Origin: Halomicronema sp. CCY15110
Lineage (GTDB): Bacteria > Cyanobacteriota > Cyanobacteriia > Phormidesmidales > Phormidesmidaceae
Assembly (NCBI RefSeq): GCF_016888165.1
Contig: NZ_JACSWC010000299.1
Span: forward strand, 46,193 to 110,192
Direction of reading: 5' to 3'
Length of the DNA: 64,000 nt
Under the pieces are notes generated by a model. It did no database searches. It saw only the letters and a list, made by a program, of their open reading frames with translations, and had not been told where the DNA came from. The position numbers and the translations under genes are program-made. Below, piece by piece: positions 2-58,080 of this stretch (position 1 is the first letter of the stretch; each line of letters starts with the position of its first letter).

Positions 2-1039
2 ATCGAACGGAACTGCTGCGACTTGGGAAACCCGGTAGATGAGTTGGTCTGAGGGTAAGCACGCTAACACACGATTCAGGGTCTTAATTACAGGAAAGAA
101 TTGATATGAGTAAGCTAGGAGGGTATTCATATTATGGAGACCAATAGCCCAATCGTTTTGCAAGCCATAGGTTAATTGCTTAGAAATGCCTGGTAGCGCT
201 AAGAGCGTAATTTTGCCCAGGCCTAAGCGATGGTTAGATGAACCCATAAGAAACCCAATCGACCTGAGCAGCCAGGCATCAGGACGCATGATTATCACGC
301 TGACCGCTACGCTGAAAAACACGCTGACCGCCACGCCGAAAAACGCGCCGCTTGCCACGCCGAAAAACACGCCGAAAAACGCGCCGCCCGCCACGCCAAA
401 CGTCACGCCAAGTACTACGCCTGTCGCTACGCTGCCCGCCACGCTTAACGCCACGCCACCTGTCACACCTCCCACCGCGCCTGCAAACACGCCGACCGTC
501 ATCACTCCCGCCACCACTCCCGCCACCACTCCCGCCACGCCTTCCGCCACGAATCCTGACACGCTTCCTACCACGCCGCCCGCCACGCCAAACGTCACGC
601 CACCTACTACGCCGAACGCTACGCCGCCTGCAACGCCGAACGCCACGTTTCCCATCACGCCGCCCACCACGCCGCCCGTCACAGCGAACGCCACACCAAA
701 AAATACGCAGAACGCCATGATTCCCCAATTGATGGGGATGCGGAGCTGCTCAAGACCGATCACCACGCTCAAAGGTGTCACCACCGTAAGTAATAGCCCA
801 TGCAGCAGCAGTTGTCGTTGCACTGGGTTGTGGCGAAGAATTTCCCAGCCCTTGCGCCAGTTCATTTCTTTGTTTGGAATATAGCCCCTGCCAAAGGTAT
901 TGACATACCACCGCAACGCCTGCGGAAAGTAGAACACCCAGTACAGCAACCGTAGATAGTCCAGCGGGTTCCATAAGGAGAGGGGGCGCTTGAGTTTGGG
1001 GGCGAGGTCGAGTCGCGGGACTGCGGTGGGGCGAGGCAT
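2..1039 (-). CDS. Glycine-zipper-repeat membrane protein, 3' end beyond window start. Minus frame is open from stop-bounded position 1075 down to position 2. Candidate ATG at 1037-1039 (minus).
   Basis: Manual translation of the minus frame with codon low-ends at 2 mod 3. The frame upstream closes at 1076-1078 (TAG), which is the same stop that ends track ORF 1076..1270. No stop down to the window edge. N-term reads MPRPTAVPRLDLAPKLKRPLSLWNPLDYLRLLYWVFYFPQALRWY, followed by hydrophobic helices. Then ~35 tandem GVxGGVxF glycine-zipper-like units encoded by the 300-720 repeat, then a non-repetitive C-terminal part. Not in the ORF track because it is truncated at the edge. Confidence 0.5.
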   Translation of the reverse strand, partial: MPRPTAVPRLDLAPKLKRPLSLWNPLDYLRLLYWVFYFPQALRWYVNTFGRGYIPNKEMNWRKGWEILRHNPVQRQLLLHGLLLTVVTPLSVVIGLEQLRIPINWGIMAFCVFFGVAFAVTGGVVGGVMGNVAFGVAGGVAFGVVGGVTFGVAGGVVGSVSGFVAEGVAGVVAGVVAGVMTVGVFAGAVGGVTGGVALSVAGSVATGVVLGVTFGVAGGAFFGVFFGVASGAFFGVAVSVFFSVAVSVIIMRPDAWLLRSIGFLMGSSNHRLGLGKITLLALPGISKQLTYGLQNDWAIGLHNMNTLLAYSYQFFPVIKTLNRVLACLPSDQLIYRVSQVAAVPFD

Positions 1040-1097
1040 GGTGGGGAGTGGCTGGGTAGCAGGGTAGTTGGGTGGCTAGATGATTGGGTGCGAAGGC

Positions 1098-2384
1098 CTA
1101 GGTTTGGCGGTATTGGTTGTAGAGAGTGTGGCAGGCTTGGGTGAGGGCTTGGGGATTGCCGTTGGCGTCGTTGATGAGCTGGTCAATTTCGCGCTCGGAA
1201 AACTGAATCGTGCTGTTGGCCAAGCGGACGGCAATATAGGCACGGGCGGTATCTGGTGCCCAAGGGGCAATGGGCTGCTCTTGACAAATATTTTCGAAGG
1301 GGGAAACGGTGAGTTCTTGATTTCGGTCTGGAAACAACATGTCTAAAGACACTCTGGCTGCGATCACAATTTTTAGCGGCGCATCTTGGGTGTCGGCAAT
1401 GCCACGTAGCTGTTCTCGAATATTACGGGTAAATCCTGCTTGGGCAAAGCGTTCCACTTCATCCAGCAACAGCAAATAGGAATGGTTGGCTTTTTCTCGG
1501 TTCAGCTTGCGCACTAAGGCGCGGCCATTCAGCGTTTCGATCTTGATCGCGGTGCAGAGATCTTCAAAGAATTCCGCTTCCGTAAACACGTTGGTGAGGT
1601 CAAGAAAGATAGGAGTGCGATCAACAGTTAACCGTTCCGGGGCTTGGCGCATGAGGGCGCGCAGGAGCGAAGACTTCCCCGAATTATGCTCGCCAATCAG
1701 GGCCACGTTATGGTTCGTGTTCAGCAACTCGAACAGGGTATTGAGCAGCCGTTCACGGTCAAAAAACTGCTCAGGCTGTTCAATGCCGCCGTGCAGCGGA
1801 AAAAACGGATTGGTGGCGTCCTCGGGATTGTCGGCAAGGGCCGGGAATGACGGCTGACTGTCGGGCTTGGCGCGATCGGTTGCCTCATTTTCTGAGACCG
1901 CCTCTAAATTCAGCTCACCGAGAAAATTGGCGCGACGCGTGTAATAGTCCTTTCGCTGCTGCTCGTTACTGGCCAACCGTTCCAGAATAAGGGTCGCCAG
2001 CTGTTCGGGCGTTTTCTGATCCAATTCAATGAAGCCAGAGGCAGGGCTGAGCCCATCGGCAGTGGCATAGTCAAAGCGGCAGGGCATTACCCGTTCGCCG
2101 TCAGCTTTCGTCAGCAAGCCGTAGATCTGCACCCATTCCCAGCCAGTCCAGCGTTTCTGGTCGTAGTCTGGGCACAGCACCGGCACAATCAGAGCAGACT
2201 GTTCGCTGTAGAGTCGCGGCAAATAGAGGCCCAGGTCATAACGAGCAAATTCCGCCTCGCAATACTTGTCGTAGAGAATCTGCGCTTCGCCAAAATAGTC
2301 GGCCAGTAGTGCCGCTACCTGTTCGACAAAGTCGCGCTTTTCTCCTGCAAAGGAAAAGGCCACCCGAAATCGCTTGGTGCTCAT
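1098..2384 (-). CDS. TIR-like domain fused to a P-loop NTPase (AAA/STAND-like ATPase)
   Basis: N-term FRVAFSFAGEKRDFVEQVAALL...SALIVPVLCPDYDQKRWTGWEW has a TIR-like pattern (FxFxGE ... W..E). Walker A is ALIGEHNSGKSSLL and Walker B is YLLLLDEVE. The gene ends 58 bp upstream of the glycine-zipper ORF on the same strand. Confidence 0.7.
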   Translation of the reverse strand: MSTKRFRVAFSFAGEKRDFVEQVAALLADYFGEAQILYDKYCEAEFARYDLGLYLPRLYSEQSALIVPVLCPDYDQKRWTGWEWVQIYGLLTKADGERVMPCRFDYATADGLSPASGFIELDQKTPEQLATLILERLASNEQQRKDYYTRRANFLGELNLEAVSENEATDRAKPDSQPSFPALADNPEDATNPFFPLHGGIEQPEQFFDRERLLNTLFELLNTNHNVALIGEHNSGKSSLLRALMRQAPERLTVDRTPIFLDLTNVFTEAEFFEDLCTAIKIETLNGRALVRKLNREKANHSYLLLLDEVERFAQAGFTRNIREQLRGIADTQDAPLKIVIAARVSLDMLFPDRNQELTVSPFENICQEQPIAPWAPDTARAYIAVRLANSTIQFSEREIDQLINDANGNPQALTQACHTLYNQYRQT

Positions 2385-2554
2385 CGAATCACGCTGTGCA
2401 AGTCAACAACTCTCCCCTCAGTTTTAACCCGTGGATAAAGAATTCCGACACGGAGGGCCGATATCAACACCGCCTTAGCCCAAGTTGGCCCGCGATCGCT
2501 CGCCTCCCACCCCTGCTTTACAGCCTCGCTCAATTTTCGCCACACTAGAGAAAA

Positions 2555-4111
2555 ATGGGTGATGGGAAATCGATGAATACAGACGTAGTCGTCATTGGCA
2601 GTGGCATCGGGGGCCTGAGCTGCGCGGCCTTGCTGGCACGGTATGGGCTGGAGGTCGTCGTCTGCGAAAGCCACACGATCCCCGGTGGAGCGGCCCACGG
2701 ATTTGAGCGGGACGGGTTCACCTTTGACTCCGGGCCATCGCTGTATTCCGGCCTGTCCTACAGCCCCTCCCACAATCCCCTGCGCCACGTGTTCGATGCC
2801 ATTGGCGAAGCCCCCGAATGGCACACCTACGACACCTGGGGCTGCTGCCTGCCCGAAGGCACCTTTGAGACCCAGGTGGGAGCCGAACAATTTTGCGAGG
2901 TACTGGGAAAATTGCGGGGCAGCGAGGCGATCGCCCAGTGGCGCAATCTCCAAACCTTTATGCAGCCCTATGGTGAAGCGGCTGTCGCCTTGCCTCCAGC
3001 AGCGCTGCGCTTCGACTGGGGAGCCGTCCAAACCGTAGCGCCGTTCGCCTTGCCGATGCTGCGTCACGCTCCCTGCATGTTGGATCTCACGGGGCCGTTT
3101 ACCCGCCTGATGGATCGGGTGGTGAGCGATCGCTTTCTCCGCCACTGGCTGGATCTGCTGTGCTTTTTGCTGTCGGGCCTCCCCGCGTCCGGCACCAGCG
3201 CCGCCGAGATGGCCTTCATGTTTGCCGACTGGTATCGCCCCGGTGTCGCGCTGGATTATCCCGTGGGCGGCAGTGCGGCCCTGGTGAATGCTCTGGTGCG
3301 CGGGCTGGAGAAACATGGCGGCACCCTGCGCCTTGGTGCCCACGTCGAGGAAATTTTGGTGACGGGCGATCGCGCTTCTGGAGTGCGCCTGCGATCCGGC
3401 GAAACCCTCCACGCCAAACGCGCCGTAGTTGCCAACGCCTCCATTTGGGACACGTTGAAGTTGCTGCCGGATCATCCCGCCACGCGATCGCTCCGTCGCC
3501 AGCGCCAAGCCCTGCCCCCCTGCGACAGCTTCATGCATCTGCACCTGGGCATTGACGCCGCCGGACTCCCCGACGATTTGGCCTGTCACCACATCGTCGT
3601 CAACGATTGGGATTTGGGCGTCACCGCACCGCAAAACGTAGTACTCATCTCCATCCCCTCCCGCCTTGACCGCACCCTCGCCCCATCCGGCAAAGACACA
3701 ATCCACGTCTACACCCCCGGCAACGAACCCTATGACCTCTGGCAGGGGCTCGATCGCCGCAGCGACGCCTACCACCAGCTCAAGACGGCCCGCTCCCAAG
3801 TGATATGGCAGGCGCTGGAGCGGGTGATTCCCGACATTCGCGATCGCGCCGAAGTTTCCCTCGTCGGCACGCCCCTCACCCACGAGCGCTTTTTGCGACG
3901 ACATCGCGGCAGTTATGGCCCCGCGATCGCGGCTGGCAAGGCCCTCTTCCCCGGCCCCACCACGCCCCTTGACGGGTTGCTTTGTTGTGGCGACTCCACC
4001 TTTCCCGGTATTGGTCTGCCAGCGGTGGCCGCCAGCGGTTGGCTCACCGCCAATACCCTTGTGCCCGTCCACGACCAAATAAAGCTACTAGAAACTATCG
4101 GGCTGCGTTAA
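2555..4111 (+). CDS. FAD-dependent oxidoreductase, phytoene desaturase/carotenoid isomerase (CrtISO/CrtH-like) family
   Basis: N-terminal dinucleotide-binding motif VVVIGSGIGGLSCAALLARYGLEVVVCESHTIPGG. Length 518 aa. Confidence 0.75.
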   Translation: MGDGKSMNTDVVVIGSGIGGLSCAALLARYGLEVVVCESHTIPGGAAHGFERDGFTFDSGPSLYSGLSYSPSHNPLRHVFDAIGEAPEWHTYDTWGCCLPEGTFETQVGAEQFCEVLGKLRGSEAIAQWRNLQTFMQPYGEAAVALPPAALRFDWGAVQTVAPFALPMLRHAPCMLDLTGPFTRLMDRVVSDRFLRHWLDLLCFLLSGLPASGTSAAEMAFMFADWYRPGVALDYPVGGSAALVNALVRGLEKHGGTLRLGAHVEEILVTGDRASGVRLRSGETLHAKRAVVANASIWDTLKLLPDHPATRSLRRQRQALPPCDSFMHLHLGIDAAGLPDDLACHHIVVNDWDLGVTAPQNVVLISIPSRLDRTLAPSGKDTIHVYTPGNEPYDLWQGLDRRSDAYHQLKTARSQVIWQALERVIPDIRDRAEVSLVGTPLTHERFLRRHRGSYGPAIAAGKALFPGPTTPLDGLLCCGDSTFPGIGLPAVAASGWLTANTLVPVHDQIKLLETIGLR

Positions 4112-4187
4112 GTTGTCTGACCTGGCGGCTAGTTTCTCCGGGCGATCGCTCAGACGGGGCGAAACATGAGTCGAAGGTTCTCAGCAT

Positions 4188-5267
4188 TTGACCATGTCCT
4201 CTTCTTTCTCTGCTTCGGAGCCTGCCACTCCTGTCATTCCTGTCACCGCCGGGGCGATCGCCACCGCCCCGGTGGACTTGTCGGAGTGGCAGCGCTTTCT
4301 CCAGTCCCAACCTTTGAATGCTGAGGCCATCGCCAGCCTGGATGAGCCAGCTTGCGATCTGGACGCCACACCGTCAGCCTCAATGTGGCGGCTGCTGGGC
4401 CAAACGCTCGGGAGCCTGTCTAGTAGTTGGCCTCTCGGCCTCTTAGCTGGGGCCGTCGCCGCTGGGAACCTGACGCTGCTAGCCTTTGATCACCTATTGA
4501 CGTTGCCGACAGAGCCTGACTGTGACGCTTGGGCGAGCCTCGACTTGGCGCGTGACCAATTAACCTGCTGGCAAACGGCGATCGCAAACGGCGACACTCA
4601 GGCAAAGCAAATGGCCCTGGCCGAGGTGAGCCGCTGGCCCGTCAGCCATCCCCTCTTTAGCGAAGGGCAAAACTTATTGGAGGACTGGTCGCACACCGCG
4701 CTGCAAGAAGCCCAGCAGGCCGCCACCGACGACAATTGGGCCACGGCGATCGCCCTGGTCGCACAAGTGCCTGGGCAGAGCCCGCACTTTCAGGCCGCCC
4801 AGGCACTGCAAGCCCAGCTACAAACTCAACAACAGAAATTAGCCCAGGCGCTTAACACTCAAGCTCAGTCGGCCCTCGCAGTGGCGGACTGGGCGACCGC
4901 TTACCAGGCTCTATCACAGCTACAGCAACTCGATCACGCTGCCGTCCCCTTAGATTCACCCCAGCAACTAGCGCAGCAAATCACCGCCGAACGCGAAGCT
5001 GTCCGATTGTGGAATGAAGCCCAGCGGTTATGGGATTCTGGCCTGGTCACCAATCGCGACACGGCGATCGCGATCGCCTATCAAATCGATTCCCGTACCC
5101 ATCGCTGGCAAGCCATTCAACCCGTCGTGAGTCGTTGGCGCGAGGCCCAGCTGACCCTGGCGCAGACCGACACCGCCCCCACTGCAACCCCCATGTCTCC
5201 GCCCCAACTGGTTTCGTTCCCTTACCAACCGCACTTTAGCGGGAGTCTTCAGCCCGTTCAGTATTAG
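4188..5267 (+). CDS. Hypothetical Ala/Gln-rich protein
   Basis: Long ORF with low-complexity A/Q-rich, coiled-coil-like sequence. No recognisable domain. Confidence 0.4.
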   Translation: MTMSSSFSASEPATPVIPVTAGAIATAPVDLSEWQRFLQSQPLNAEAIASLDEPACDLDATPSASMWRLLGQTLGSLSSSWPLGLLAGAVAAGNLTLLAFDHLLTLPTEPDCDAWASLDLARDQLTCWQTAIANGDTQAKQMALAEVSRWPVSHPLFSEGQNLLEDWSHTALQEAQQAATDDNWATAIALVAQVPGQSPHFQAAQALQAQLQTQQQKLAQALNTQAQSALAVADWATAYQALSQLQQLDHAAVPLDSPQQLAQQITAEREAVRLWNEAQRLWDSGLVTNRDTAIAIAYQIDSRTHRWQAIQPVVSRWREAQLTLAQTDTAPTATPMSPPQLVSFPYQPHFSGSLQPVQY

Positions 5268-45809: not shown

Positions 45810-46580
45810 TTAAGGGGCGACCTTGGCCGTCGTACCGCGCAGGAGATCCATGATTTCGTCGCAATGGTGGTGAAACGGGTCAGTCCGGCGGACGGCATAG
45901 GCGCGGTGCGGCCCCAGGTGGATGCTCACTTCTGCGGCGATCGTGCCAGGACGCGCTGAGAGCACGTAGATGCGCTGGGAGAGAAACACGGCCTCGCTGA
46001 CATCGTGAGTAATCATCAAAATGCTGATGCCCAGGCGATCCCATAGTTCCAGTAAAAATTCCTGCATACTTTCTTTGGTCTGCACGTCTAAAGCGCCAAA
46101 GGGTTCGTCCATCAGCAAGATTTTGGGATGGTTAGCCAGGGCGCGGGCGATCGCTACCCGCTGTTTCATACCGCCGGACAGTTCCTTGGGCAGCGATCGC
46201 GAAAACTGCGCCAGCCCCACCACATCCAGATAGCGCGACGCTTCTTCGCGCCGCTGCTTGGCCGCCATACCTTGCAGCTTCAGGCCAAATTCCACATTCT
46301 CCTGCACCGTCATCCAGGGATAGAGGGTGTAGCTCTGGAACACCATGCCGCGATCGGCCCCCGGCCCAATCACCGGCTGCCCATCCACGGTGATTTCCCC
46401 CGCTGTGGGCATCTCTAGCCCCGCCACCAGTCGCAGCAAAGTGGACTTGCCGGAACCCGACGCGCCGACGGCACACACAAATTCCCCCGTTTCAACGTGC
46501 ATGTTGATGTCTTTGAGGGCGACGAGCGGGCCTTGGGGCGTGTTGAACTGTTTGTGGACTTTGGCGATTTCCAGGTGCAT
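45810..46580 (-). CDS. ABC transporter ATP-binding protein (NitT/TauT nitrate/sulfonate/bicarbonate family), part of the guanidine-associated transporter
   Basis: Walker A GASGSGKSTLL, signature SGGMKQRV, Walker B LLMDEPF. Confidence 0.85.
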   Translation of the reverse strand: MHLEIAKVHKQFNTPQGPLVALKDINMHVETGEFVCAVGASGSGKSTLLRLVAGLEMPTAGEITVDGQPVIGPGADRGMVFQSYTLYPWMTVQENVEFGLKLQGMAAKQRREEASRYLDVVGLAQFSRSLPKELSGGMKQRVAIARALANHPKILLMDEPFGALDVQTKESMQEFLLELWDRLGISILMITHDVSEAVFLSQRIYVLSARPGTIAAEVSIHLGPHRAYAVRRTDPFHHHCDEIMDLLRGTTAKVAP

Positions 46581-46582
46581 GG

Positions 46583-46640
46583 GTTTGGGGTGAGGGTAGC
46601 TGGGTAGCTGGGTTGTTGGGTAGCAGGGTGTGAGGGTGCT
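46583..46640. repeat. Array of degenerate octamer repeats (TGGGTAGC-like), left arm of an inverted pair flanking the four-helix-bundle gene
   Basis: ggtgagggtagctgggtagctgggttgttgggtagcagggtgtgagggtg, read directly. Confidence 0.6.
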
Positions 46641-46693
46641 TGGGTGGAAAAGGGGGAATTCTGGAAGTGTCTGTCTACACAGGGTGCGGGTGT

Positions 46694-47170: not shown

Positions 47171-48129
47171 CACTGACAGGTCATCCGCATGGCAGCTTGC
47201 AGAGAGAGATCGAGGATGAATCCGATGAGGCCCAGCACCAGTAAGCAGGCGAAGATGTCGTCGGTTTGAAAGAATTTTTGGGAGATGGCGATGCGCTTGC
47301 CGAGGCCGCTGTCGGCGGCGACGAGTTCGGCGACGATGACCAGGTTCCAGGAGGCGGCCATGTTGACGCGCAGGGTGTCAAAGAGGCTGGGGATAACGTA
47401 GGGGGTGATGACTTGCATCAGTACCTGGCGGCGATCGCCCCCCAAGGTATAAGTCGTCTCAATCAGCTCTTTGGGCACAAACTTGACCGCATCCATAATC
47501 ATCAGCGTGTTGAAAAACACGGTACCGATAAAAATCAGCGCAATTTTCGGTTCTTCACCCAGGCCCAAATAAATGATCAAAAGGGGAATAAAGGCCGGAG
47601 CGGGCATGTAACGAACGATGCCGACGAGGGGTTCTAGCAGCGATCGCACGCTGCGAAACGCCCCCATGCCAATACCCAGCGGAATCGCCACCAGCGCCGC
47701 CAGCAAAAAGCCCGCCGACACCCGCAAAAAGCTCGCCAGCGTGTCGGTCAGCAAATAGCCCTCTTGCCACAAGGTCACCAGGGACGCGATGACCATGCCG
47801 GGCGTCGGTAGAAACTTGTTGTCAATCCAGCCGGTGCTCGCGATCGCCCACCACAGCAACAACGGCACCAACACCGACATCACCATCAGCACCCATTTCA
47901 GCCGGATTGGGATGTCCTCAGCAATGCGCCAAAACACCGTCGGCTTCAGGCTAGGGGCCGCTGTAGACGACTCTGTATACGTGGGTGGAGAGGAGACGAC
48001 TGTCATGATGAGACCTGCGAGAGAGCGGCTAATTGAGAATGCCCGGTTTTGAGGAAGAGTGTGAGAGTAGCTGGGTAGTAGGGTGGCTGGGTAGCAGAGT
48101 GGCTGGGTAGCGGGCTGTGAATCCCTCAC
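47158..48129 (-). CDS. ABC transporter permease (NitT/TauT family)
   Basis: Permease signature region with conserved G..P spacing. 323 aa, 6 TM helices. Confidence 0.8.
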   Translation of the reverse strand: MRDSQPATQPLCYPATLLPSYSHTLPQNRAFSISRSLAGLIMTVVSSPPTYTESSTAAPSLKPTVFWRIAEDIPIRLKWVLMVMSVLVPLLLWWAIASTGWIDNKFLPTPGMVIASLVTLWQEGYLLTDTLASFLRVSAGFLLAALVAIPLGIGMGAFRSVRSLLEPLVGIVRYMPAPAFIPLLIIYLGLGEEPKIALIFIGTVFFNTLMIMDAVKFVPKELIETTYTLGGDRRQVLMQVITPYVIPSLFDTLRVNMAASWNLVIVAELVAADSGLGKRIAISQKFFQTDDIFACLLVLGLIGFILDLSLQAAMRMTCQWAVK

Positions 48130-54040: not shown

Positions 54041-55213
54041 ATGCTCAATCCCAACCTCGATGAAATTCAACTGCATCCAGAGGAGTACGAGCGCTTTTCC
54101 AGGCACCTGATTCTGCCCGAAGTGGGTCTGGAAGGGCAAAAGCGCCTGAAGGCGGCTAGCGTACTCTGCATTGGTACCGGCGGTCTCGGCTCGCCCCTAC
54201 TGCTATATTTGGCCGCAGCGGGCATTGGCCGCATCGGCATCGTCGATTTCGATATTGTGGATAAGTCGAACCTGCAACGACAGGTCATCCACGGCACCTC
54301 GTGGGTCGGCAAGCCCAAAATCGAATCGGCTAAAGATCGCATTCAGGAAATCAACCCCTTTTGCCAGGTCGATCTCTATGAAACGCGCCTCTCGTCGGAG
54401 AATGCTCTCGACATTATCGAACCCTACGACGTGGTGGTCGATGGCACCGACAACTTCCCCACCCGCTATCTGGTCAACGACGCCTGTGTGCTGCTAAACA
54501 AGCCCAACGTCTACGGTTCGATCTTCCGGTTTGAGGGTCAGGCCACCGTATTCAACTACGAAGATGGCCCCAACTATCGCGACCTCTACCCCGAGCCGCC
54601 GCCACCCGGCATGGTACCTTCCTGCGCGGAAGGCGGCGTCCTCGGCATTTTGCCGGGCATCATCGGCGTCATCCAAGCGACGGAAACGGTGAAAATCATC
54701 ATCGGCAAAGGCCGCACCCTCAGCGGTCGCCTGTTGCTGTACAACTCTCTGGATATGACCTTCCGGGAATTGAAACTACGGCCTAATCCGGTGCGCCCCG
54801 TCATTGAAGAGCTGATCGACTATGAGCAGTTCTGCGGCATTCCCCAAGCGAAGGCGGCTGAGGAAGCGGAGCAGTCCGCCGTGCCAGAAATGAGCGTGAA
54901 AGAGCTGAAGGCCCTGCTCGATGCGAAAGGCGACAACGTCCTGCTGCTAGATGTGCGGAACCCCCATGAGTGGGAGATCGCCCAGATTCCCGGGGCGGTG
55001 CTGGTGCCCCTACCCGACATCGAAAAGGGTGAGGGTGTGGACAAGGTGAAGTCACTGCTCAACGGTCACGAGCTGGTAGTTCACTGTCGATCGGGAGTGC
55101 GATCGGCCAAGGCCCTCGGCATCCTGAAAGAAAGCGGCATCACTGGCACCAACGTCGCGGGCGGCATCCTCGCCTGGAGCGAAGAAATCGACCCCTCCGT
55201 CCCGCAGTATTAA
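54041..55213 (+). CDS. moeB: Molybdopterin-synthase adenylyltransferase MoeB/MoeZ (ThiF/E1-like + rhodanese domain)
   Basis: RFSRHLILPEVGLEGQKRLKAASVLCIGTGGLGSPLLLYLAAAGIG nucleotide-binding motif. CxxC pairs. C-terminal rhodanese domain with CRSGVRS active-site loop. Confidence 0.9.
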   Translation: MLNPNLDEIQLHPEEYERFSRHLILPEVGLEGQKRLKAASVLCIGTGGLGSPLLLYLAAAGIGRIGIVDFDIVDKSNLQRQVIHGTSWVGKPKIESAKDRIQEINPFCQVDLYETRLSSENALDIIEPYDVVVDGTDNFPTRYLVNDACVLLNKPNVYGSIFRFEGQATVFNYEDGPNYRDLYPEPPPPGMVPSCAEGGVLGILPGIIGVIQATETVKIIIGKGRTLSGRLLLYNSLDMTFRELKLRPNPVRPVIEELIDYEQFCGIPQAKAAEEAEQSAVPEMSVKELKALLDAKGDNVLLLDVRNPHEWEIAQIPGAVLVPLPDIEKGEGVDKVKSLLNGHELVVHCRSGVRSAKALGILKESGITGTNVAGGILAWSEEIDPSVPQY

Positions 55214-55215
55214 CT
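55127..55215. repeat. Direct repeat copy 1 (intact moeB 3' end)
   Basis: aaagaaagcggcatcactggcaccaacgtcgcgggcggcatcctcgcctggagcgaagaaatcgacccctccgtcccgcagtattaact is repeated at 55874-55960. Confidence 0.75.
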
Positions 55216-55298
55216 CAGCCGGGTCAATTCAACGACAGTTAGGGTAGGCAGTGCTTACCCTAACTGTTAGGTTTAGGCATACGCGAAGCGAGGTAGAC

Positions 55299-55520
55299 AT
55301 GCCTACTGCGATTCAAGAAATCTATAGTCGCGTTTTGTCGACGTTATCCCCTACTGAGCGTCTACAACTGGCAACTCTGATCCTCAATAGCTTGGTTCAG
55401 GAAAATGCTGCCATAGATGACAGCGACACCTGGACAGAACAAGATCAACTCGATCTAACGACCTTTTCTTTGCAGTACGCGATGACTGCGTTTTCTGAAG
55501 ATAGCGAGATTGCTGAGTGA
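55299..55520 (+). CDS. Putative antitoxin
   Basis: Small acidic protein immediately upstream of the MazF-like gene, overlapping it by 4 nt (ATGA). Start uncertain (track start 55251, internal ATG 55299). Confidence 0.45.
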   Translation: MPTAIQEIYSRVLSTLSPTERLQLATLILNSLVQENAAIDDSDTWTEQDQLDLTTFSLQYAMTAFSEDSEIAE

Positions 55521-55846
55521 GTTATCAGCCAGGTGATGTCGTAACGGTTGATTTCCCTGGTGTGACGGGCGTGAAGCGTCGCCCAGCAGTGGTTTTATCT
55601 TCCCACGAATATCATGCCATTCGCCCCGACATCATCCTTGGCCTAATCACCTCTCAGACCAAGAATTTGGGCGTCACGGATTGCGTGCTTCAGGACTGGC
55701 AGGCAGCGGGATTGCGAGTGCCATCCATTTTTCGCAGCTTCATTGTGACATTGCCCCGCTCAGCCAATTTGAGTGTGGTTGGGCACTTGTCGTCACAGGA
55801 CTGGCAAGGCATCATTGCTTGTGTAAAAGTTGCTCTAGCTGAATAG
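55517..55846 (+). CDS. MazF/PemK-family toxin (type II TA endoribonuclease)
   Basis: GDVVTVDFPGVTGVKRRPAVVLSS...IILGLITSQ is the PemK/MazF signature. Confidence 0.75.
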   Translation: MSYQPGDVVTVDFPGVTGVKRRPAVVLSSHEYHAIRPDIILGLITSQTKNLGVTDCVLQDWQAAGLRVPSIFRSFIVTLPRSANLSVVGHLSSQDWQGIIACVKVALAE

Positions 55847-55873
55847 CCAGCGCTAACTCATACATTATCCTCA

Positions 55874-55960
55874 AAGAAAGCGGCATCACTGGCACCAACG
55901 TCGCAGGCGGCACCTCGCCTGGAGCGAAGAAATCGCCCCCTCCGTCCCGCAATATTAACT
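55874..55960. repeat. Direct repeat copy 2 (decayed duplicate of the moeB 3' end, 1-nt deletion and substitutions)
   Basis: aaagaaagcggcatcactggcaccaacgtcgcaggcggcacctcgcctggagcgaagaaatcgccccctccgtcccgcaatattaact. Confidence 0.75.
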
Positions 55961-56132
55961 TGACCTAATTAGTTCAGTGATTAGAAGGGTGGGTATTTGC
56001 TCACCCTGTTTCTTATTAGCAAGCCCCTCAACTCAAAATGTCATCCCAGGGTGTTGAAGAGTGAAACATTTCGGGAAATATTGTGGAAATAATTAAATTT
56101 TCACCTTCCAAAACTAAGCAGGAGACGCAGAT

Positions 56133-57107
56133 ATGATTGATGGGATAGACCAACTTATTGCACTTTATGGAAACCCACATAAATTTGTGAAAGCTTTTTT
56201 AGAAAGCACTTTGTTCATGCCGCCAGAGATCGTTCAGCAAAGAAATCAAGAAATGATCGAAGCTTATAAAGCTGGCGGCAAGTTTCCTATCCGGTATTCT
56301 CCATCTCATCATGAGGCTTTGGGCGTTAGAAATAAAGCAGAAGCTATTGTCTTAACAAGAGAAAATGAAACTCACTTGCCTGCTTATCCATCTTTCAATA
56401 TCAAAATTGACAACGATGGAAATCATGAGAATAGACGTTCTATAAAAAGATATCTTGGCCAAACTATTAGTACAGGCAAACATAGCACAGTAAAGAATTA
56501 CATTATTTCCCACGTATGGGGACTGGCTTCTCACCCACTGTTCTTCTCTTCTTTATGGAATATTGTATTGATCCCAGCTCATTTTAATTATTTAATGGAT
56601 AAGGACCCAGAATCGCATCCTGTGGTGAAGACAGTCAAAGAATCAATCCAGCAAAAATGTATTTCTATGTATCGGTTTTGTGAGCAGCTTGCTCCCGAAA
56701 TCTCAGAAATTGAAGAATTTAGAAGTCTGTTCTTTGTGAAACACAGCCAGGAGGATGAACCGCAATATAGCATTGCATTTTTAACGAGAGAAGGTGTCGA
56801 GCGACAACAAAAAGAGATTTCTATATCTGAAGACGAACAGGTTCTGCTTGAAAGGCTTCTAAGTAAGATGGGCAAGAAATTCTTCATTGACTATTACGAG
56901 TCTTACGCAAGCGGCGAAGACTTAATGAAAGTAATTCCGATCGGTCTTTATACTTACAGCTCGATTCAAACAAGAATTAGTACAATGAGGCGAATCTTTC
57001 GCGAAAATCTCAATCTTAAGGCTTTAGTCTATATTCTGAGCAAGGATCAGTCGAAACTCGATGACGCATCTATTGAGTTGGCGAAAGATTTAGTTGAATT
57101 AGACTGA
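56133..57107 (+). CDS. Hypothetical protein in a low-GC islet; possible HNH-like nuclease motif
   Basis: Region approx 56000-57110 is clearly AT-rich versus the flanks. Motif SHVWGLASHPLFFSSLWNIVLIPAHFN has an H...N...H spacing compatible with an HNH fold (weak). Confidence 0.45.
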   Translation: MIDGIDQLIALYGNPHKFVKAFLESTLFMPPEIVQQRNQEMIEAYKAGGKFPIRYSPSHHEALGVRNKAEAIVLTRENETHLPAYPSFNIKIDNDGNHENRRSIKRYLGQTISTGKHSTVKNYIISHVWGLASHPLFFSSLWNIVLIPAHFNYLMDKDPESHPVVKTVKESIQQKCISMYRFCEQLAPEISEIEEFRSLFFVKHSQEDEPQYSIAFLTREGVERQQKEISISEDEQVLLERLLSKMGKKFFIDYYESYASGEDLMKVIPIGLYTYSSIQTRISTMRRIFRENLNLKALVYILSKDQSKLDDASIELAKDLVELD

Positions 57108-57501
57108 TAAAAGTGAATGTCTCTGTCGAGGTTTATGGCAGCATACTTATGAAAGAATATTGTCTCTTTAAATGTAACTTAAAAATGGGAAGCGATCGCT
57201 ATCTCCGAGTTGCAGGATGATGACGATATCGCGTTCACCTCTACCCTTTAAGAAGTCAACCTTCGCCAGAGATGTCGCAAGGCGTTACACGAAGCACACT
57301 ACAGCTTCGTTATAATCCGACTAAGGCTGGATAGCCTTACTTTTATGACTGAACTTTTAGAGCAGGCGATCGCGCAACTCAGGAACCTGGATGCGGATAG
57401 GCAAGCTGCGATCGCCCCACTCCCCACAAACTCAACTACTGGCAGCGATCGCGATGTTGCATAATTTTGCTGCACTTCACCGTTGAGCCAGGAACGAAAA
57501 G

Positions 57502-58080
57502 ATGACCAAGCGATGCGAATGGTGCGGCGACGACCCGCTCTACGTCTCCTACCATGATCATGAATGGGGCATCCCGATTCATGACGATCGGCTGTTGTTT
57601 GAGTTCTTGATTCTAGAGGGGGCGCAGGCGGGGTTGAGTTGGCTCACCATCCTGAAGAAACGCGAGAACTATCGCAAGGCATTTCACAACTTCGACTGTG
57701 AACAGATTGCCAGCTACACAGAAGCAGACGTGGCACGTTTACTTTCCGATTCCGGCATTGTCCGCAATCGACTCAAGATCGAATCAGCCATCAAGAACGC
57801 CCGCGCCGTCCTGAGTATTCAAGCGGAATTTGGCTCACTGGACGCTTATCTCTGGCGCTACGTCGATGGCATTCCCCAGCAAAATGCGTGGCAATCCATG
57901 GCGAAAGTTCCAGTCAAAACAGAACTCTCGGACATGATGAGCAAAGATTTGAAAAAACGAGGATGCAACTTCGTCGGTTCAACGATCTGCTATGCATTTA
58001 TGCAAGCAGTGGGCATGGTGAACGACCACACAACCGACTGCTTTCGTTACGAAGAAATTAAGGAATTGACCAAACCGTGA
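57502..58080 (+). CDS. tag: DNA-3-methyladenine glycosylase I
   Basis: CEWCGDDPLYVSYHDHEWGIPIHDDRLLFEFLILEGAQAGLSWLTIL is the Tag signature, including the Zn-binding Cys/His. Confidence 0.85.
   Translation: MTKRCEWCGDDPLYVSYHDHEWGIPIHDDRLLFEFLILEGAQAGLSWLTILKKRENYRKAFHNFDCEQIASYTEADVARLLSDSGIVRNRLKIESAIKNARAVLSIQAEFGSLDAYLWRYVDGIPQQNAWQSMAKVPVKTELSDMMSKDLKKRGCNFVGSTICYAFMQAVGMVNDHTTDCFRYEEIKELTKP

Follow-up and report, generated by a model that had tools for sequence, protein, structure and literature searches.

The 64,000-nt stretch of contig NZ_JACSWC010000299.1 from the filamentous cyanobacterium Halomicronema sp. CCY15110 that was analyzed here (positions 46,193 to 110,192, in the following called the window) carries a small toxin-antitoxin (TA) cassette of the MazEF type directly downstream of moeB. 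The cassette lies between two copies of the 3' end of this gene, the functional end on the left and a decayed copy behind the toxin gene on the right. Coordinates refer to the window unless a comparison locus (L001 and so on) is named. This part of the locus consists of the following features:

54041 to 55213, plus strand: moeB, the intact target gene, encoding an adenylyltransferase/sulfurtransferase of 390 amino acids (aa) with ThiF and rhodanese domains (NCBIfam PRK07411 MoeB, Pfam)
55121 to 55215 (95 nt), plus strand: repeat copy 1, the functional last 31 codons of moeB, the stop codon and 1 nt past the TAA
55235 to 55267, plus strand: perfect 16-bp hairpin between the moeB stop codon and the antitoxin gene, without a U-tract (inverted repeat)
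55299 to 55520, plus strand: antitoxin gene, 73 aa, not of the MazE/AbrB type (sub-threshold family matches, conservation)
55517 to 55846, plus strand: gene of a MazF/PemK-family toxin, 109 aa, GTG start (PF02452, fold)
55847 to 55866, plus strand: spacer of 20 nt, the novel junction from the end of the cassette to repeat copy 2
55867 to 55960 (94 nt), plus strand: repeat copy 2, a pseudo-3' end of moeB, present as a frameshifted non-coding scar

The window MoeB matched the NCBIfam model PRK07411 MoeB with 794 bits (cut-off 633) and the Pfam domains ThiF (8.6e-81) and Rhodanese (7e-15). It shares 93-96% aa identity with the proteins of L001-L006, and its nearest relatives are from Halomicronema/Leptolyngbya-type cyanobacteria. 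The two copies of the gene end differ at five positions (95% identity), comprising four substitutions and a 1-nt deletion. From copy 1 to copy 2, three of the substitutions are synonymous third-position changes (CTG to CTC, GCG to GCA and CAG to CAA), the fourth is nonsynonymous (GAC to GCC, Asp to Ala), and the deletion of a T in copy 2 shifts the reading frame. A check of the window open reading frames (ORFs) revealed no plausible ORF covering copy 2, and the moeB-end repeat is the sole repeat of such kind within the 64 kb. A preliminary description of this DNA had reported that about 88 bp of the moeB end recur with a 1-nt deletion and substitutions; the recurrence, the changes and, within a few bases, the coordinates were correct, but the length is 94-95 nt. 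Identity between the copies drops one base past the stop codon, and the 65 nt following each copy are remotely alike at best, with a local score that was equalled by 84 of 2000 shuffles.

The insert between the copies comprises 651 bp, with the two TA genes as its sole genes. An antitoxin-like ORF and a MazF-family toxin gene had already been proposed for this interval, and both the PF02452 match and the fold agree with that assignment. The two genes overlap by 4 nt as described, but the letters are GTGA, because the toxin starts with GTG, and not ATGA. For the toxin, PF02452 was matched with 40.3 bits (cut-off 23.1, E 4.1e-10) over residues 5-105. A phmmer search of the window MazF against PDB sequences returned no match, so a fold search was needed to confirm the toxin family. 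The AlphaFold2 (AF2) model of the toxin has a pLDDT of 84. Using Foldseek, this model gave 131 matches in the PDB at E <= 0.001. Each of the 50 top-ranking matches listed is a chain of MazF or of a MazF-family toxin, YdcE and MoxT among them; TM is 0.78-0.85 in the top ten, and the MazF structures of E. coli, B. subtilis, M. tuberculosis and S. aureus were matched with E about 1e-6 and TM 0.78-0.85. On the basis of this model the 109-aa protein is a MazF/PemK-family toxin with the CcdB/MazF SH3-like barrel fold and a predicted toxin activity. No record matched the exact sequence of the window MazF, and 970 homologs, mostly cyanobacterial, were collected. One homolog with 72% identity is located on a Planktothrix plasmid, which makes plasmids plausible vehicles.

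The antitoxin gave two sub-threshold matches, to PF09720 Unstab_antitox (18.2 bits, cut-off 23.3) and to TIGR02574 ('addiction module component'). No match to MazE/AbrB (SpoVT) was obtained in Pfam or NCBIfam, indicating that a PemK-family toxin is paired here with a non-canonical antitoxin, and no sequence relative was found in the PDB at E <= 0.01. A 73-aa gene was also called at the corresponding position of L081 and L098. The window antitoxin and that of the L110 cassette are homologs (E 6e-7), and the L110 protein has a sub-threshold match to DUF2281. In every relative examined (L081, L098, L083, L105 and L110) the antitoxin gene is kept upstream of the toxin gene. The pair resembles the chromosomal mazEF and pemIK (kis-kid) systems in the MazF/PemK fold and Pfam family of the toxin and in the small upstream antitoxin gene overlapping by 4 nt; it differs from them in that the antitoxin is not of the AbrB/MazE type.

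Within the cassette, the region 55342-55541 of the antitoxin shows the greatest divergence of the window from the 96%-identical L081 (87-88% identity, surroundings 95-100%), and two unrelated contigs, L082 and L084, break inside the antitoxin gene of their own cassettes. The divergence and the contig breaks are hints of an exchange of antitoxin alleles or of confusion between multiple copies. The MazF gene of L098 contains an in-frame TAG at 4166-4168, so that the toxin is inactivated in one allele of the population, with an intact antitoxin gene.

The species-level comparison comprised 80 species-representative moeB loci. A second moeB end was present in none of the 80, and neither the window MazF nor the AT-rich gene for a 324-aa protein that lies to the right of copy 2 was found downstream of moeB in any of them. 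In the closest relatives an upstream arginase-family gene and moeB are syntenic with the window, and the DNA 3' of moeB is different in each. Haplotypes with the cassette were also identified. In the metagenome contig L081 the segment of moeB, hairpin and TA pair is 96.4% identical to the window, and the contig stops 15 nt before the position of copy 2. In L098-L100 the segment of moeB, hairpin and mazEF shares about 90% identity with the window, and a pseudo-moeB end comes after it, as in every cassette haplotype that is readable far enough (window, L098, L099 and L100). Copy 2 of L098, L099 and L100 comprises about 155-175 nt after the MazF gene, and in L098 and L100 it is only 86-88% identical to copy 1. 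The 20-nt spacer of the window is related to its L098 counterpart and about 110 nt shorter. The TA-bearing haplotypes (window, L081, L098 and L100) share the last moeB codons 'CAGTATTAAC', the spacer and the hairpin, and the TA-less moeB ends of L085, L001 and L004 read 'CAATACTAAG' or similar.

The contigs L098 and L085 are 99.3% identical over 3.7 kb on the left, up to approximately the last 8 nt of moeB, and 99.5% identical over 2.4 kb of the right flank. Near-identical flanks around a different interior identify them as alternative alleles in one metagenomic population. Judged from these alignments, the TA cassette is an insertion, and moeB beside it is intact. An insertion at the moeB 3' end is what the preliminary description had suggested, and the alignment of moeB loci that it proposed displays the empty site with a single copy in all 80 loci and in the same-population haplotype L085. 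It had also named two findings that would speak against an insertion; a duplicated moeB end without TA genes was seen in none of the loci compared, and the second copy lies in no unrelated gene.

At the three synonymous difference sites the window copy 2 has the L085 state. For this reason, the joining of moeB ends from two lineages fits better than a duplication in situ followed by decay. Three changes in the constrained copy, as opposed to two in the unconstrained one, agree poorly with a duplication in situ and decay; the probability that at least three of the five changes fell in the constrained copy is about 0.06, in a hand binomial calculation that assumes roughly that only a quarter of the sites of this copy are free. 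An assignment of the window copies to donor and resident was not retained, as five differences are insufficient to settle it.

To the right of copy 2 the window contains the following features:

55986 to 56017, plus strand: terminator-like hairpin with a T-rich tail, at the start of the block common to L085 (terminator scan)
56133 to 57107, plus strand: AT-rich gene, 324 aa, uncharacterized family, an independent occupant of the slot described below (ORF, GC content)
57345 to 57422, plus strand: first 26 codons left over from the antitoxin gene of a second TA cassette (ParE type), which is intact in L085, L098 and L100
57408 to 57452, plus strand: motif of about 45 nt upstream of tag, at the right edge of the variable slot
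57502 to 58080, plus strand: tag, 3-methyladenine DNA glycosylase I, the conserved right flank shared with L001 (PF03352, 9.2e-85)

The hairpin at 55235-55267 behind copy 1 has a minimum free energy (MFE) of -28.4 kcal/mol (z -4.1), is conserved in all TA haplotypes and is related to the moeB terminator of L003 (none of 2000 shuffles reached an equal score). A dispersed repeat of the REP or MITE type was considered for this hairpin and rejected; the motif occurs at one place in the window and otherwise only 3' of moeB in L003 and L081. Copy 2 of the window abuts the second hairpin at 55986-56017 (MFE -20.1 kcal/mol), a terminator that in L085 precedes the 324-aa gene (L085 5841-5910; none of 2000 shuffles equalled the score of this stretch). 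In the TA-less loci L085, L001 and L004 moeB is followed by a terminator with a GGAAGC stem. A native-type GGAAGC terminator is located 3' of copy 2 in L098, with the TA-haplotype-specific hairpin 3' of copy 1. This is expected if copy 2 is the displaced resident end, and copy 1, the hairpin and the TA pair came from a donor.

The cassette is one of several alternative contents of this interval. The cargo of L098 consists of the hairpin, mazEF, the pseudo-moeB end and an Abi_C gene, and that of L100 of mazEF, the pseudo-moeB end, a gene for a tetratricopeptide repeat (TPR) protein and a vapBC pair. The haplotypes L085-L090 contain a 145-aa ORF and the 324-aa gene, without TA pair or duplicate. 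Pfam searches on the slot occupants gave Abi_C (8.6e-22), PIN (3.3e-8) and ParE_like (4e-16). Copy 2 of L100 and copy 2 of L098 part ways only in their last approximately 40 nt and then lead into different cargo, so the pseudo-end itself seems to act as a recombination anchor. After the variable cargo, a ParE-type TA pair is common to the L098, L100 and L085 haplotypes. Of its antitoxin, 22 of the 26 residues of the window remnant are identical (E 7e-13) and the window has lost the remainder by deletion; in L100 the partner toxin matches PF24732 ParE_like (4e-16). The tag flank is 84.5% identical to L001 3565-4209. In this closest species-level relative moeB is followed by a different AT-rich gene and then by tag; the 291-aa ORF (2534-3409, weak DUF6745 match) that fills the moeB-tag interval is further evidence for a hotspot. 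Alleles are thus exchanged here between conserved flanks, and these comparisons characterize the moeB 3' flank in the Halomicronema/Leptolyngbya-like clade as a slot whose TA/defence-type content varies between strains. It resembles variable-gene hotspots and defence islets such as the hsd-mrr 'immigration control region' of E. coli, with alternative TA, abortive infection (Abi) or nuclease-like cargo at moeB between flanks of more than 99% identity, but it differs from the E. coli-type hotspots in its position (moeB-tag or moeB-TauE, in another phylum) and in the pseudo-moeB scars, which show the route of filling. Cassette-like variation between core genes is also reported in the literature, as far as the citing text conveys it (ref. 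38 in PMC2853133).

The motif of about 45 nt upstream of tag brackets the ParE-type cassette on both sides in L085 and L098. These direct repeats of about 50 nt resemble the sequence upstream of tag in the window and in L001, and they may represent another small target duplication.

The 324-aa gene had been described as part of the same islet as the TA pair. It occurs without the TA genes in L085-L090, however, and the TA genes occur without it in L098-L100; since each is found alone at moeB, they are independent occupants. The GC content around the gene is 36-40%, and that of moeB 55-61%. The window segment 55976-57415 is 87.6% identical to L085 5845-7244, which is without the TA pair, and homology to L091 spans 56036-57107 only, indicating that the 324-aa gene moves as a solo unit. 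Its family comprises 57 homologs, none of them annotated, with loci in L085 (6001-6975), L091, L096 and L097. A two-gene system of the 145-aa and 324-aa ORFs was considered and rejected, as L085 and L092 have unrelated ORFs upstream of the 324-aa gene. The AF2 model of the protein has a pLDDT of 89. No match was found in Pfam, NCBIfam or PDB sequences and no significant fold match in the PDB (Foldseek top: the HNH restriction enzyme ScoMcrA at E 1.3); PADLOC gave one weak match (CARF3--CARF, E 0.0069). The family has an invariant motif, SHVWG...P.FF.SLWNIVL.P...DK (SHVWG/WNIVLIP/DK), which would suit a nuclease-type site, but the second of the histidines that an HNH site should have is not conserved. 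The weak HNH-like motif noted previously is therefore supported by neither a family profile nor a significant fold match. From the company it keeps, one might guess at a role as a defence or selfish gene. A second place holds the same pair of cargo types as the moeB slot: in two other cyanobacteria with 73-79% nucleotide identity at the locus (cation ATPase/AAA_16 gene), the slot 3' of the AAA_16 gene contains mazEF in L083 (3780-4342) and the 324-aa gene in the orthologous locus L096 (6001-6975).

The preliminary description had interpreted the structure as a site-specific insertion and proposed a search for an integrase or att-like features. Pfam searches on the larger window ORFs between 43.8 and 63 kb and on the neighbours in L081, L085, L098, L100, L110 and L113 revealed no integrase or transposase, and no intI gene was present among the ORFs screened. 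The window contains one tRNA-Glu at 42.6 kb, which is unrelated. No attC-like structure was recognized at the end of the cassette, where copy 2 is a moeB fragment and not an imperfect palindrome, although no dedicated attC model was run. An att core is short, identical and of fixed length; the repeats found here have 94 to about 175 nt, are 86-95% identical and vary between lineages. In the sense of an integrase acting on an att site, the site-specific interpretation is not upheld.

A known mode of insertion with similar features is the 'insertion with long target duplication' described for gene complexes of restriction-modification (RM) systems (Nobusato et al. 2000, Gene 259:99; Furuta, Abe & Kobayashi 2010, PMC2853133). 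These insertions have target duplications of 30-420 bp and no mobility genes, and a start or stop codon is often included in the repeats; one case with an 88-bp target duplication is from the cyanobacterium Microcystis (PMC2853133). A later review gives this mode for RM systems only (PMC3874152), and a limited full-text literature search found no description of a TA pair inserted in this way. Compared with the features used by Furuta et al. 2010, the direct repeats are longer than 30 bp (95/94 nt in the window, about 155-175 nt in L098/L100), the empty site has a single copy (80/80 loci and L085, more than 99% identical to the L098 flanks), and the insert is shorter than 20 kb (651 bp) without linked mobility genes in the window ORFs screened; the cargo is a TA pair instead of an RM system. 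Both types of insertion involve a small post-segregational-killing unit without transposase or integrase, direct repeats that match a single copy in empty-site genomes, and a host gene that survives. They differ in the cargo, here a type II TA pair, and in the copies, which are diverged at moeB and have a lineage-dependent length. Except for the cargo, the RM insertion mode is the best fit to the moeB locus.

We consider it probable, with a rough probability of 0.6, that the region 3' of moeB is a strain-variable slot in which mazEF entered behind the moeB stop codon as an insertion with long target duplication, probably by homologous recombination anchored in moeB. The mazEF-type cassette would have entered directly after the stop codon without a mobility gene; moeB would have stayed intact, with an additional copy of its 3' end, by now in decay, left downstream of the toxin gene. 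As mechanism we infer host homologous recombination in the conserved moeB 3' end, which could proceed by a single crossover (Campbell-type) with a circularized donor consisting of moeB 3' end, hairpin and mazEF, or by homology-facilitated illegitimate recombination of a linear fragment. By both routes, copy 1, the hairpin and the TA pair would stem from the donor and copy 2 would be the displaced resident end. Later swaps of the genes to the right of the scar would involve recombination with moeB or pseudo-moeB as the left anchor and the conserved right flank as the other; the putatively swapped occupants are the 324-aa gene in the window, the Abi_C gene or the TPR gene with vapBC elsewhere, and the ParE-type TA pair. 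As an addiction module, MazEF would hinder loss of the segment.

Several points weigh against this explanation. Copy 2 of the window has 94 nt and is 5% diverged, in contrast to about 155-175 nt and 13-14% divergence in L098, so that one has to assume either separate events or a shortening and renewal of the window copy through conversion or recombination. Neither a locus in the donor state (moeB, hairpin and TA pair without the scar) nor an empty-site relative more than 98% identical to the window strain was found among the loci compared. No microhomology is evident at the novel junction. The screen for mobility genes covered the window ORFs between 43.8 and 63 kb only, and a recombinase may have acted in trans, which would be compatible with the sequence. 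Finally, the molecular mechanism of insertion with long target duplication is unknown even for RM systems.

Integrative elements and integrase-less cis-mobilizable elements (CIMEs) are inserted at the 3' ends of genes for proteins or tRNAs, for example ICESt1 and ICESt3 at fda, and TA modules are typical stabilizers of genomic islands. The moeB insert could be such an integrase-less remnant, in which the element supplied the replacement end and later lost its integrase and further cargo by deletion, with the addictive TA pair persisting between attL and attR. Shared with these elements are a target at the 3' end of a gene, restoration of the frame by the insert, a displaced end left as a direct repeat, and repeats that bracket the insert; the homolog on the Planktothrix plasmid indicates that the family rides on mobile DNA. 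In contrast to them, no recombinase gene was found in the window ORFs screened, in L081, L098, L100 and L085 or in L110 and L113, the repeats are far longer than a typical att core, imperfect and variable in length, and the insert has only 651 bp, with 20-50 nt from the toxin stop to copy 2, which leaves no room for remnants. We regard this origin as unlikely, though not far-fetched. A local rearrangement, in which the moeB end was duplicated in tandem by slippage or unequal crossing-over and the TA genes landed between the copies by chance, or in which a break was repaired with template switching, would lead to the same final structure, and insertion between repeats by chance was considered for RM insertions as well (PMC2853133). 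We judge it improbable in view of the 0/80 loci with a duplication without TA genes, the different sequences past the two stop codons together with the native-type terminator behind copy 2 of L098, the three synonymous differences in the constrained copy and the recurrence of the pattern at another gene. An assembly artefact or chance similarity is a general possibility only, to which the end of the L081 contig just before copy 2 could be added, and it is practically negligible: 94 nt at 95% identity are unique in the 64 kb, and the same architecture with diverged sequence is present in three independent metagenome assemblies.

The other gene at which the pattern recurs is a radical-SAM gene in an unrelated GC-rich non-cyanobacterial lineage (L110, L111 and L113). 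Here a MazEF of the same subfamily (65% identity) follows the gene, and a 108-nt piece of the gene is repeated 10-20 nt after the MazF stop (L110 1145-1252 and 2645-2752; L113 2835-2891 and 4330-4386, with a later 22-nt deletion in the L113 repeat). In L113 a large restriction-helicase-like gene follows. In L105 three TA cassettes (YefM/YoeB-like, mazEF and a third pair) are located at 2960-5150 and separated by repeats of about 100 nt, which are rich in the cyanobacterial HIP1 octamer GCGATCGC; the repeats of L103 and L104 are similar. An integron reading of the L103-L105 arrays was set aside, since these repeats are spacers rich in HIP1. The idea that flanking repeats universally mark the cassette was likewise rejected, as L083, L107, L108 and L115-L121 lack them. 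Flanking repeats are present in about 2-3 of roughly 12 independent MazEF contexts, compared with a background of 11 direct-repeat pairs (at least 50 nt, 0.3-3 kb apart) in 831 kb of cyanobacterial DNA; flanking duplication around MazEF looks enriched over this background and is far from universal. These frequencies, the start of copy 2 at a distance of 10-50 nt behind the MazF stop with two unrelated genes as targets and the repeats of about 100 nt bracketing the L103-L105 cassette inside a TA array could point to MazEF as a dedicated mobile unit or integron-type cassette, which ends 10-20 nt past the toxin stop and is inserted at gene ends by its own or a partner machinery. This is very doubtful, as MazF has an RNase fold without a DNA-recombination domain, neither an attC-like structure nor intI was detected in the material screened, the repeats in L105 are spacers rich in HIP1, a comparison of the window, L098 and L110 junctions revealed no conserved sequence, and most homologous cassettes (for example L083, L108 and L115-L119) are without a flanking repeat. 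As a separate observation, short tandem arrays with an 8-nt GGGT-rich unit (for example GGGTAGCT/GGGTGGCT) are located at three intergenic places of the window (1026-1105, 46582-46645 and 48053-48124).

The movement of TA and RM modules from one chromosomal place to another in the absence of mobility genes still lacks an agreed explanation. The mode with long target duplication has so far been derived from genome comparison only and for RM systems only, and the moeB locus adds a TA example with comparative support from empty sites, same-population alleles with flanks of more than 99% identity, scars of different ages and an independent parallel gene. The case is clear, fairly ordinary and well documented, and it overturns no current view. 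The 324-aa family is worth noting as an uncharacterized family that shares slots with TA and Abi genes and is a candidate for a new defence or selfish gene. A wider and rather unlikely proposal is that this MazEF subfamily, perhaps small TA cassettes generally, spreads by a specific undescribed route to the 3' ends of conserved genes, with the toxin stop 10-50 nt from a long target duplication, and that this is the same unexplained route as proposed for RM systems. If this were true, the moeB slot, with at least three alleles in one population and nested pseudo-gene scars, would be a natural system for dissecting the mechanism. The locus also indicates that the 3' end of a conserved gene can serve as a reusable homology anchor for a small TA/defence islet.

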